From NCBI RefSeq assembly GCF_044324875.1, contig NZ_CP172185.1: 64,000 bases of DNA; one strand, 5' to 3'. Below are positions 20,703 through 26,991 of this stretch, piece by piece. The position numbers and the translations under genes are program-made. Origin of the DNA: Escherichia coli. Its GTDB lineage: Bacteria; Pseudomonadota; Gammaproteobacteria; Enterobacterales; Enterobacteriaceae. The notes below the pieces were generated by a model, which saw only the letters and a list, made by a program, of their open reading frames with translations, was not told the origin of the DNA and ran no database searches. Numbering within the stretch: the first letter of the stretch is position 1; each line of letters opens with the position of its first letter.

Positions 20703-21398
20703 ATGAAACGTGCTGTCGTTGTGTTCAGTGGAGGCCAGGATTCCACCACCTGTCTGGTGCAGGCATTACAACAATATGATGAAGTCCATTGCGTGACGTT
20801 CGATTACGGTCAGCGACATCGCGCAGAAATCGACGTGGCACGCGAACTGGCGCTGAAACTGGGGGCACGCGCGCATAAGGTTCTTGATGTAACGCTGCTC
20901 AACGAGCTGGCGGTCAGCAGCCTGACGCGTGACAGCATTCCGGTGCCTGATTATGAACCTGAAGCTGATGGCATCCCGAATACGTTTGTCCCAGGGCGTA
21001 ATATTTTGTTCCTGACACTGGCGGCAATATATGCGTATCAGGTAAAAGCAGAAGCCGTAATTACTGGCGTCTGCGAAACGGATTTCTCCGGCTACCCGGA
21101 TTGCCGCGATGAGTTTGTGAAAGCACTAAACCATGCCGTCAGTTTGGGCATGGCGAAAGATATTCGTTTTGAAACGCCGCTGATGTGGATTGATAAAGCG
21201 GAAACCTGGGCGCTGGCAGATTATTACGGCAAACTGGATTTAGTCCGTAACGAAACGTTGACCTGCTATAACGGCATTAAAGGCGACGGTTGCGGTCATT
21301 GTGCGGCATGTAATTTACGCGCCAACGGTTTGAATCATTATCTGGTCGATAAACCGACGGTGATGGCAGCGATGAAGCAGAAAACCGGGTTGAGGTAA
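20703..21398 (+). CDS. queC: 7-cyano-7-deazaguanine synthase QueC
   Basis: 231-aa [42 protein letters not shown]... (PP-loop ATPase SGGxDS). Confidence 0.95.
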
Positions 21399-21449: not shown

Positions 21450-21848
21450 TTACTTAACCATCTGCTCGAGCTTTTCGCGCAATTCCCCTTCCAGAGCTAA
21501 TGCTTTCTGCGTTTTAAGATCAATACAAACAAACGTAATAAGCGCATCCGCTACCACCTGCCCTTCCGGCTCCAGTGTAATGACCTGGCTTAAGATGCCG
21601 CTTTTACCGTTTAATTGCTGCAACTGACTGGTAATGGTTAACAGGTCGCTTAATACCGCCGGGCGACGATAGTTAATATTGATATTGACCACGACGAAGG
21701 CGATGTTATGGGCCGTCATCCACTGAAAACTGTCGCTATTTTCCAACCCATCCCAGCGGGCTTCTTCGAGAAACTCCAGATAGCGGGCGTTATTAACGTG
21801 CTGGTAAACATCGAGATGATATCCACGAACTTTGATTTGTGTTTGCAT
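21450..21848 (-). CDS. fadM: Long-chain acyl-CoA thioesterase III FadM (YbaW)
   Basis: 132-aa ORF MQTQIKVRGYHLDVYQHVNNARYLEFLEEARWDGLE... (hotdog fold). Confidence 0.93.
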   Translation of the reverse strand: MQTQIKVRGYHLDVYQHVNNARYLEFLEEARWDGLENSDSFQWMTAHNIAFVVVNININYRRPAVLSDLLTITSQLQQLNGKSGILSQVITLEPEGQVVADALITFVCIDLKTQKALALEGELREKLEQMVK

Positions 21849-22092
21849 AGCGCAATAACCTTACGTTGTTTTTATAAAAACTGTTATAAGTGCAAAATGG
21901 CATCTGAATCGATCGCAGTTTGGCATTCGAATCGATCATGATTTGGCATCCATCTCCGATCACAGTTTGGCATCACAATCGATCACGATTTGGCATGCTT
22001 CCGATCATTGATTGGCATCCTGCCAGTCACTCCGGGAATTAACTCTTTTCACCACAGTCTCCATTGCCGTGTTTAAACCAGTGGAGACGTCA

Positions 22093-23658
22093 ATGTCCAG
22101 AAAGAGAAAATCCAGGAGCACTATGGAAACCTGTTTTAAGATCCTTCAGCTCAAGTTCGACAAGAAGCTGACTAACCGTTGTATCGGACTGACGTTACAC
22201 ATCAGCGCCTCAACCGTTTTTGAGGTTCTTGCCCGCTTCAAAGCCTCTTCTCTGTCATGGCCATTACCTGCTGATATATCCCATGACACGCTGGAGAAAC
22301 TCATTTTTCCGCCCAAAGACACCTTTGCATCAGAGCTTGTAATGCCTGACATGTTGTACTTCGATACGGAAATGAGAAAACCAGGTGTGACGCGGCAACT
22401 GTTGTGGATGGAATACAAGGCACAGGCGGGTAACAAAGCGATGGGATACTCGCACTTCTGCCGTTGCTACCGGGAGTGGAAAAAAACGCGACGTCTCTCC
22501 ATGCGCCAGGAGCATCGTGCCGGCGAAAAGCTTTTTATCGACTTCTGTGGTCCTACGGTTCCTGTTATTAATCCGGACACCGGTGAGATACGCCGCGTGG
22601 CAATCTTCGTGGCCGTAATGGGGGCGTCCAACTATACCTACGTTGAAGCGTGCGAAGGTCAGGACATGATGTCATGGTTAAATGCCCACAGCCGTTGCCT
22701 GACCTTCCTGGGCGGCGTACCGAAGCTGCTCATCCCCGATAACCTCAGAAGCGCAGTGAAAAAGGCCGATCGATATGAGCCTGTCATCAACGACAGTTAT
22801 CAGGCACTGGCTGAGCACTATGGCACGGTTATCATCCCGGCCCGACCACGCAAACCTAAAGATAAACCAAAAGCAGAAAACGGCGTCCTCATCGTTGAAC
22901 GATGGCTTCTTGCCCGCATCCGTAATGAAACCTTCCACACGCTCAGGGCGCTGAATGCGCGCCTTAGGGAGTTACTGACAGACATGAATAACCGGCCAAT
23001 GAAGGGGTACGGCAATCAAACCCGTGCAGAACGCTTCCGCATACTGGATGCGCCAGCACTCTCTCCGCTGCCTCTGGCACCTTATGAATACACGGAATAC
23101 AAAGCTGTGAAGGTTGGCCCTGACTACCACGTTGAATATGCCCGTCACTGGTACTCCGTTCCACACGAACTGGTCGGTCAGCGTCTGTCACTGAAGGCGG
23201 GGCAGTCGGTGGTACAGCTCTGGCACAAGGGGCAGTGTGTGGCGCAACATCCGCGCAGCACACATGAATATAAACACACAACCAATCCGCTTCACATGCC
23301 AGAGCGCCACCGGCAGCACGGGACATGGACACCGGAACGCCTGATCGAGCAGGGAAAACGTACGGGCCCGTCCACAGGCCGGGTGGTTGAATCCATGCTG
23401 AAGGCAAAACCCCATCCGGAACTGGCTTATCGTGCAGTTCTGGGGCTGCTGGCACTTCAGAAAAAATACGGCCCGGAACGGCTGGAAAAGGCCTGTTACG
23501 TTGCCCTGCACTATAACGCCCCTGACAGACGCTTTATCGACAATCTGCTGCGTCACCATCGGGAGAACCTGGAGCTTCCATTATCCCGCCAGGGCGAACA
23601 ACATCCGGCATATGCTTCAGAGCATGAAAACCTGCGTGGTCCGGGCTACTACCACTGA
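22093..23658 (+). CDS. istA: IS21-family transposase IstA
   Basis: ORF 22012..23658 trimmed to ATG 22093 (ggagacg SD-like sequence upstream); large transposase-sized protein, IstA-like by pattern; start could instead be ATG 22123. Confidence 0.8.
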   Translation: MSRKRKSRSTMETCFKILQLKFDKKLTNRCIGLTLHISASTVFEVLARFKASSLSWPLPADISHDTLEKLIFPPKDTFASELVMPDMLYFDTEMRKPGVTRQLLWMEYKAQAGNKAMGYSHFCRCYREWKKTRRLSMRQEHRAGEKLFIDFCGPTVPVINPDTGEIRRVAIFVAVMGASNYTYVEACEGQDMMSWLNAHSRCLTFLGGVPKLLIPDNLRSAVKKADRYEPVINDSYQALAEHYGTVIIPARPRKPKDKPKAENGVLIVERWLLARIRNETFHTLRALNARLRELLTDMNNRPMKGYGNQTRAERFRILDAPALSPLPLAPYEYTEYKAVKVGPDYHVEYARHWYSVPHELVGQRLSLKAGQSVVQLWHKGQCVAQHPRSTHEYKHTTNPLHMPERHRQHGTWTPERLIEQGKRTGPSTGRVVESMLKAKPHPELAYRAVLGLLALQKKYGPERLEKACYVALHYNAPDRRFIDNLLRHHRENLELPLSRQGEQHPAYASEHENLRGPGYYH

Positions 23659-23674
23659 CAGAAGGAACAACAGT

Positions 23675-24430
23675 ATGAGTGATAACCTGTTAAACAAACT
23701 GACCCAACTGAAACTCCCGGCGATGGCCGGGAGCCTGATACGGCAGCGGGAAACGCCTCAGACCTACGACGAACTGTCGTTCGAGGAAAGGCTGACGCTG
23801 CTGGTTGATGACGAGCTTCTGAGCAGGGAAAACAGCCGTGTGGCACGGTTGAGAAAAAATGCCGGCCTGAAATACCAGGCAACACCGGAAGGGCTGCGCT
23901 ATCCGGCCTCAAGAGGTCTGCGGGCTGAACAGATGAGAGAACTGCTGAACGGCCACTACATAACCCACAGGAAAAACCTGCTGATAACCGGTCCGACAGG
24001 ATGTGGCAAGAGCTGGATAGCCAATGCGCTGGGCGAACAGGCATGTCGACAGAAACACAGCGTCCGGTACTGTAGAACCGGGCGATTACTGGAACAACTG
24101 GCTCAGGGACGTGTTGATGGCAGCTGGCTGAAATATCTGAAACAGTTGCAAAAAATACAGGTTCTAATCCTGGACGATCTGGGGCTGGAACAGTTAAGTA
24201 ACGCCCAGTGTAATGACCTTCTGGAGCTCATAGAGGATCGTTACGGACAAAGCAGCACGATAGTGGTAAGCCAGTTCCCGGTAGATAAATGGCATGGTCT
24301 GATGGAGAACCCAACAACAGCAGATGCCATCCTGGACAGACTGGTACATAACTCACACCGAGTGGTCCTTCAGGGAGAGTCACTGAGGAAAAATCCCCCG
24401 GTAGTGGAAAGCAGCGAAAAAACGCGTTAA
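23675..24430 (+). CDS. istB: IS21-family ATP-binding helper protein IstB
   Basis: ORF 23432..24430 trimmed to ATG 23675 (aagga SD), 251 aa; Walker A GPTGCGKS and Walker B VLILDDLG; 16 bp after the istA stop. Confidence 0.85.
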   Translation: MSDNLLNKLTQLKLPAMAGSLIRQRETPQTYDELSFEERLTLLVDDELLSRENSRVARLRKNAGLKYQATPEGLRYPASRGLRAEQMRELLNGHYITHRKNLLITGPTGCGKSWIANALGEQACRQKHSVRYCRTGRLLEQLAQGRVDGSWLKYLKQLQKIQVLILDDLGLEQLSNAQCNDLLELIEDRYGQSSTIVVSQFPVDKWHGLMENPTTADAILDRLVHNSHRVVLQGESLRKNPPVVESSEKTR

Positions 24431-24545
24431 AAAGCGGTAGAAAAAGTTAAGTTCCCGGTTGATCGAATGGATGCGAATCGCTGATCGGACTTCGATGCCA
24501 ATCCGTGATCGAATAGAGCGGAATACGCAATAAGTACAGAGGTCA

Positions 24546-26991
<2,446 letters not shown>

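Follow-up and report, generated by a model that had tools for sequence, protein, structure and literature searches.

An ISSso4-type IS21-family insertion sequence between fadM and ybaV of Escherichia coli and its arrays of 23-bp terminal repeats

Iterated repeats fill both ends of an insertion sequence (IS) in a 64,000-nucleotide stretch of Escherichia coli DNA (contig NZ_CP172185.1; hereafter, the window), and they raise the questions of where exactly the element ends and which protein reads its ends. The genes around the insertion are ordered queC (20703 to 21398, plus strand), fadM, also named ybaW (21450 to 21848, minus strand), the IS, ybaV (24598 to 24969, minus strand), and ppiD (25120 to 26991, minus strand), and the insertion itself contains two open reading frames (ORFs), both on the same strand. 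The best explanation, which we regard as highly probable as a whole, is that the IS arrived by transposition in an E. coli-type chromosome, landed in the intergenic space between fadM and ybaV, and generated a duplication of its 5-bp target, ATAAG. The features of the locus are listed in Table 1.

Table 1. Coordinates of the element, its terminal repeats, and the adjoining host DNA (positions in the window)
Feature	Coordinates	Strand	Description or basis
Complete ISSso4-type IS21-family IS	21891..24529	+	2,639 bp, 5'-TG...CA-3'; termini invariant in nine independent copies; empty site
Target-site duplication, left copy	21886..21890	.	ATAAG (5 bp); single ATAAG in the empty site
Target-site duplication, right copy	24530..24534	.	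ATAAG; empty-site comparison
Left-end array	21891..22018	+	Six units of ~23 bp, each an (A/T)TGGCAT core followed by CGATC
L1	21891-21914	+	Unit of the left array
L2	21915-21937	+	Unit of the left array
L3	21938-21961	+	Unit of the left array
L4	21962-21984	+	Unit of the left array
L5	21985-22006	+	Unit of the left array
L6	22007-22018	+	Half unit of the left array, without CGATC
Subterminal inverted repeat, left arm	22032..22050	+	CCGGGAATTAACTCTTTTC; 74% complementary to 24440-24458
istA	22093..23658	+	IS21-family DDE transposase, 521 aa from the ATG at 22093; Pfam, NCBIfam, and IS5376 homology
istB	23675..24430	+	AAA+ helper ATPase, 251 aa; Pfam IstB_IS21, NCBIfam NF038214
Subterminal inverted repeat, right arm	24440..24458	-	GAAAAAGTTAAGTTCCCGG on the plus strand; pairs with 22032-22050
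Right-end array	24461..24529	-	Three units read from the tip; inverted match to the left units
R1	24529-24507	-	TGCGTATTCCGCTCTATTCGATC; weak core ATTCCGC
R2	24506-24483	-	ACGGATTGGCATCGAAGTCCGATC; core TTGGCAT
R3	24482-24461	-	AGCGATTCGCATCCATTCGATC; core TTCGCAT
Host DNA outside the element	24535..24597	.	Downstream of ybaV; same sequence at the uninterrupted site of E. coli 7/2

An earlier note, made from the sequence alone, had assigned the element to the IS21 family, and both of its proteins bear this out by scoring above the NCBIfam cut-offs. IstA reaches 284.6 bits against NF033546 ("IS21 family transposase"; cut-off, 160), and IstB reaches 257.8 bits against NF038214 ("IS21-like element helper ATPase IstB"; cut-off, 200). 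In addition, IstB matches the Pfam family IstB_IS21 with an E value of 1e-60, and IstA matches Mu-transpos_C_2 (72 bits) and, slightly below the cut-off of 32.6 bits, rve (32.1 bits). IstA is homologous to the IstA of IS5376 (PDB 8B4H and 8Q4D; E value, 7e-14), with a phmmer alignment that spans residues 85 to 383 only and has the N-terminal helix-turn-helix (HTH) region outside it. The element is built like other IS21-family members. The istA product is a DDE transposase of the RNase H fold with a C-terminal beta-barrel, and istB lies directly downstream, its ATG (23675) separated by 16 nucleotides from the stop codon of istA (23658). The terminal inverted repeats are imperfect and of the form 5'-TG...CA-3', the target duplication seen by comparison with the empty site is short, and each end carries multiple direct repeats about 23 bp apart (six left, three right; period, 22 to 24 bp).

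Two in-frame ATGs 10 codons apart are present at the start of istA, at 22093 (MSRKRKSRST) and 22123 (METCFK...), and PGAP starts identical istA copies at the downstream one, which yields a protein of 511 aa. Paired in-frame istA starts 7 to 10 codons apart are also shared by the diverged relatives ISEc12, ISAs29, an ISPre4-like element, and an IS21-family element of Citrobacter freundii, with a distance of 7 codons in ISEc12, ISAs29, and the C. freundii element. The two starts are reminiscent of the transposase/cointegrase pair of IS21, whose members differ by 8 N-terminal residues (PMC10122671).

Within the family, PGAP labels IstB proteins identical to this one "IS21-like element ISSso4 family." Compared with the copy on Shigella sonnei plasmid pFORC11.1, whose IstA and IstB carry the ISSso4 family label from PGAP, the element shows 96.3% nucleotide identity over 2,639 bp and 509 identical IstA residues out of 521. 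The istA-istB order, the termini, and the six-unit left and three-unit right arrays are the same in both. In ISfinder, an isoform has at least 95% nucleotide identity to the reference. With a divergence of about 3.7% from the S. sonnei copy, the present copy is probably an isoform or close variant. Copies that are 99.5% to 100% identical occur in 92 complete E. coli genomes. Both the element and its terminal repeats are ordinary and already catalogued. Very probably, this IS21-family element is intact and of the ISSso4 type, and its repeats are 23-bp units that are predicted IstA sites by homology with IS5376.

The limits of the element were fixed by aligning its copies and by comparison with uninterrupted chromosomes. 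In an alignment of the window with eight other copies, all nine share the termini TGCAAAATGG... and ...GGAATACGCA without variation, the flanks being unrelated, and the invariance begins at the T of TGCAAAATGG (21891) and stops at the end of ...GGAATACGCA (24529). When the IS was searched together with both flanks, the copies located elsewhere in the 92 complete E. coli genomes matched only from about 21870/21891 to about 24529/24538. The predicted empty site was built from positions 21591 to 21890 and 24535 to 24834, with the IS and one ATAAG deleted. It is found in a single piece with 100% identity over 600 nucleotides in many E. coli chromosomes and is covered by at least 80% in 5,422 of 5,426 complete genomes. 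The empty-site junction expected from these limits is ...TTATAAG/TACAGAGG..., with the slash at the joint; the empty site reads ...CTGTTATAAGTACAGAGG... with one ATAAG only, and in a three-way alignment with E. coli 7/2 it reads ...AAAACTGTTATAAGTACAGAGGTC.... Together, the empty-site match and the shared exact termini place the IS at 21891 to 24529 and identify ATAAG as the target duplication. The IS at this site is found in none of the 5,426 complete E. coli genomes, in which a query spanning the junctions reached a best coverage of 81%.

These limits agree with the earlier note at the left end, where the terminus TGCAAAATGGCA at 21891 is confirmed by the copy alignment, and depart from it at the right end. 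The note had extended the IS to about 24593, with TGCATAGTGGCA (24582 to 24593) as its right inverted repeat, or alternatively had placed both ends 6 bp further inward with the hexamer TGCAAA as the target duplication. In favor of such boundaries, TGCAAA does occur at both 21891 to 21896 and 24588 to 24593, and TGCAAAATGGCA and TGCATAGTGGCA share a superficial match of 9 out of 12 positions. However, the left hexamer is internal to the IS and invariant in all copies, the right one belongs to the host and is also seen in the empty site, and the 64-kb window contains 50 copies of TGCAAA in all, so that the occurrence of the hexamer stands and its role as a duplication does not. Moreover, the whole of 24535 to 24597 is present in the empty site, and no other copy of the IS reaches past 24529 to 24535. 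The true right end is ...GCGGAATACGCA at 24529, which is 64 bases inside the one called, and TGCGTATTCCGC... is the actual inverted repeat on this side. Alignment to an empty site, which the note itself had named as the check, thus gives junctions that differ from both of its schemes, and the probability that either is right is negligible. The supposed right terminus, also given as TGCCACTATGCA (24580 to 24591), proved to be host DNA downstream of ybaV and is present in the empty site. The main value of the analysis lies in this correction, which settles the element limits and the duplication and returns 64 bp formerly given to the IS to the 3' region of the host gene ybaV.

Target duplications in the IS21 family measure 4 to 8 bp, with 5 bp in many members. 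Those flanking other copies of this element are TTTATAG, CATAAG, CTCAGAA, TTATAC, AAAGT, GTAAAG, GTAAA, ATTAAT, and CTCAGGC (5 to 7 bp). Over 13 insertions of this IS type, the duplications are 5, 6, or 7 bp long and mostly AT rich, and the 7-bp class (4 of 13) is larger than expected if a duplication of constant 5-bp length were extended by chance.

On the host side, the IS lies 42 bp (21849 to 21890) from the fadM start codon, on its upstream side, with istA oriented away from fadM, and it cuts fadM off from all sequence further upstream. The expression of fadM in this strain could be changed by an IS at this distance. At the other end, a hairpin on the minus strand at 24538 to 24562, with a 10-bp stem (AGAGGTCATA...TATGACCTCT), lies directly downstream of ybaV. 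Its start lies 4 bp past the right ATAAG copy, at a distance of 9 bp from the end of the IS. The empty site contains this hairpin too, and it probably serves as the terminator of ybaV.

The left end is an ordered array of two alternating blocks. The core TTGGCAT occurs on the plus strand at 21920, 21943, 21967, 21990, and 22012, with spacings of 23, 24, 23, and 22 bp, and a sixth, degenerate core, ATGGCAT, is found in the terminal unit at 21897. Interleaved with the cores are CGATC blocks at 21910, 21933, 21957, 21980, and 22002, and the two kinds of block are 11 to 12 bp apart from center to center, which is about one helical turn. These five TTGGCAT sequences make up five of the nine matches in the 64-kb window. 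The combined pattern TGGCAT-N5-7-CGATC is far more specific, with six matches in the window, all in the IS ends (five left and one right), compared with 0.12 expected by shuffling, and none of 100 shuffled sequences reached six. Taken as two-unit blocks, L2-L3 (47 nucleotides) and L4-L5 (46 nucleotides) are about 85% identical to each other. The iterated left-end repeats reported in the earlier note are thus real, and they amount to six cores 22 to 24 bp apart with five CGATC blocks between them. The consensus proposed for them, (T/G)TTTGGCAT(C/T), does not hold and is slightly off for the flanking bases: G or A precedes TTTGGCAT, the fifth copy reads GATTGGCAT, and the bases following the five copies are T, C, C, G, and C.

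At the right end, two to three units matching the left array are present in inverted orientation. CGATC is found at positions 19, 43, and 65 counted from the tip inward on the minus strand, and the two ends can be aligned over about 70 nucleotides with a few gaps. The two right-end copies noted earlier, GATTGGCATCG (24491 to 24501, minus strand) and GATTCGCATCC (24470 to 24480, minus strand), are present as called. The right tip TGCGTATTCCGC (24518 to 24529) is nearly unchanged in relatives with about 45% IstA identity, which read TGCGTATTCCGG, TGCGTATTACCG, and TGCGTATTCTGG (loci L014, L015, and L016), and the left tip has diverged to TGCAAAATGGCA, so that the two tips of this element are unusually dissimilar.

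What the units are likely to do can be judged from IS5376 of Geobacillus stearothermophilus, the IS21-family model of known structure. The terminal inverted repeats of the IS21 family consist of direct repeats, L1/L2 and R1/R2, that are 23 bp apart in IS5376; each contains two conserved blocks about one turn apart, CS1 and CS2, which are read by HTH-2 and HTH-1, respectively, and integration requires two complete repeats (PMC10122671). In the same structure, the IstA tetramer has its catalytic subunits on repeat 1 and its structural subunits on repeat 2, and both ends are wrapped as a negative supercoil (PMC10122671). The present element shares with IS5376 a homologous IstA, TG...CA tips, a 5-bp target duplication, and direct repeats 23 bp apart with two conserved blocks each and about one helical turn between them. 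In period, bipartite layout, and orientation, the ISSso4 units agree with the IS5376 description, (A/T)TGGCAT and CGATC taking the places of the two blocks at 11 to 12 bp from center to center. The elements differ in that each IS5376 end has two repeats according to its description, compared with arrays of six (left) and three (right) here, the motif sequences are unrelated, and IstA has 521 aa here compared with about 400 aa, with N-terminal DNA-binding regions that cannot be aligned by phmmer. Consistent with the sites described for the family, 23-bp direct repeats bound by HTH-1 and HTH-2 of IstA (PMC10122671), the proposal in the earlier note that the iterated ends are the transposase-binding sites of an IS21-type element is upheld.

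Each 23-bp unit is most likely a site for the two HTH domains of IstA. Such a site may comprise a core and the CGATC downstream of it or a CGATC and the core downstream of it, and the sequence fits either division. We infer the binding of IstA and the division of work between the units by homology with IS5376. In this model, each unit would dock a single IstA monomer, and the two blocks would be read by its HTH-1 and HTH-2 domains, which lie in tandem. The catalytic pair of subunits would sit at the CA-3' tips on the terminal units L1 and R1, and the structural pair would occupy L2 and R2, completing a tetramer that would wrap both ends as a negative supercoil until a bent target is delivered by IstB. 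The inner units, L3 to L6 and R3, are most likely accessory and could increase the amount of IstA bound locally and block transcription into istA. Related roles have been proposed for the family, namely, that occupancy of the ends masks promoter elements (PMC10122671) and that multiple terminal repeats hold IstA in an autoinhibited state until IstB arrives, as suggested in the 2024 transpososome paper (PMC11208146). Homology, together with many identical copies at different sites with duplications, points to binding of the repeats by IstA and to transposition with IstB and ATP. A broader parallel exists with the ends of phage Mu and Tn7, which, as is well established, carry several subterminal MuA or TnsB sites per end in numbers that are unequal between left and right and are served by a tandem-HTH transposase and an AAA+ helper (see also PMC10122671). 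However, Mu and Tn7 belong to other families, with irregular spacing and no homology at the DNA level, and the parallel is an analogy only.

Diverged relatives provide a comparison within the IS21 family. In elements with 42% to 48% IstA identity, the 23-bp bipartite architecture is kept, whereas the block sequences are element specific. The ISPre4-like element has blocks ATTCCAC...CTTGGACAC in four left and four right units, ISAs29 has ATTCCGG...GTGAACAC in four left and two right units, and ISEc12 has AATAACAT...GAGATC in four left and two right units. The C. freundii element has three to four left and two right units, and the right tip TGCGTATT(C/A)C... is conserved throughout. None of these four has as many left units as the ISSso4 type, whose left tip has diverged. 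The repeat motifs differ across these sequences and may covary with IstA, and a layout that stays constant while the motifs change is the pattern predicted by a reader encoded in the element. In a closer relative from Enterobacter asburiae (83% identical), every CGATC block and most of the cores are preserved, and there is a full sixth unit.

The number of left units also varies among near-identical, intact elements, which carry six, four, or three, each with its own target duplication. A copy on an enterotoxigenic E. coli (ETEC) plasmid has four left units, one of them an L2/L4 fusion, and is flanked by GCCAGA (locus L019, 2682 to 2800); this duplication and those of the intact three-unit copies are perfect. 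Three units are found in a copy on a plasmid of pig E. coli (L1, L5, and L6; duplication AGGCT) and in an E. coli chromosomal copy (duplication ATCTAAG); the three-unit arrays lie at 2694 to 2800 of locus L020 and 2701 to 2807 of locus L022. Decayed remnants on E. coli and Serratia plasmids (among loci L012, L017, and L018) have three or two left units. Judging from these copies, L2 to L4 are dispensable for the upkeep of an apparently intact element and, since two three-unit copies sit at different sites with a duplication each of their own, probably for transposition as well. Conceivably, recurrent deletion of left units after insertion gave rise to the three-unit copies instead. The variation in unit number is a small detail that is possibly undescribed, and it touches a point left open by the structural papers on IS21, Tn7, and Mu, namely, the purpose of the repeats beyond the core two.

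Two readings of the supernumerary units may be set against each other, and we consider each of them improbable, though not negligibly so. According to one, the six-unit array is a lineage-specific expansion that involved a 47-bp two-unit duplication, and the six-, four-, and three-unit variants may tune transposition frequency or the autoregulation of istA by acting as a sink for IstA. If this were true, ISSso4 would be a natural allelic series for the function of supernumerary repeats of the IS21, Mu, and Tn7 types. According to the other, function resides solely in the two outermost units of each end, and L3 to L6 are neutral products of unequal recombination or slippage between the 23-bp or 47-bp repeats. 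The similarity of L2-L3 to L4-L5 points to duplication, and neutrality would also suit both the variation in unit number among intact elements and the need of IS5376 for only two repeats in vitro. However, most E. coli copies have six units, the cores and CGATC blocks of this form are largely conserved in the E. asburiae relative, and distant relatives also keep four left units, all of which argue against neutral extras.

A very unlikely alternative to IstA as the reader is that the repeats are mainly promoter or host-factor elements, with TTGGCA serving as a -35-like hexamer or the units serving as iterons for a host protein. TTGGCA does match TTGACA at five of six positions, and promoters at the ends are known in IS21 biology (PMC10122671). 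However, a consensus scan of both strands from 21700 to 24750, which includes the left end, revealed no sigma-70-like promoter, whether for istA or directed outward, and no -35/-10 promoter-like pair, and autoregulation is therefore a predicted step of the proposed mechanism. The inverted copies of left-end units at the right end also speak against this alternative, as does the variation of the motif among diverged relatives on a constant 23-bp bipartite layout, which favors an element-encoded reader over one from the host. A junction promoter in the style of tandem IS21, with the -35 hexamer in the right end and the -10 hexamer in the left end, was sought by eye, and no convincing one was found. 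The candidate -10 hexamer CAAAAT (IS positions 3 to 8) was rejected since, with a junction of 2 to 3 bp, the -35 hexamer would be AATAGA or GAATAG, which match at no more than two of six positions.

Directly inside the repeat arrays at both ends lies a subterminal inverted repeat, CCGGGAA(T/C)TTAAC(T)nTTTTC. As a candidate site for the integration host factor (IHF), the subterminal CCGGGAAnTTAAC repeat was rejected, with no match to WATCAANNNNTTR by eye. The inverted repeat is conserved in the 83%-identical relative from E. asburiae, and a motif of the form ...CCTTAACGC occurs at the equivalent position at both ends of ISAs29 and of the C. freundii element.
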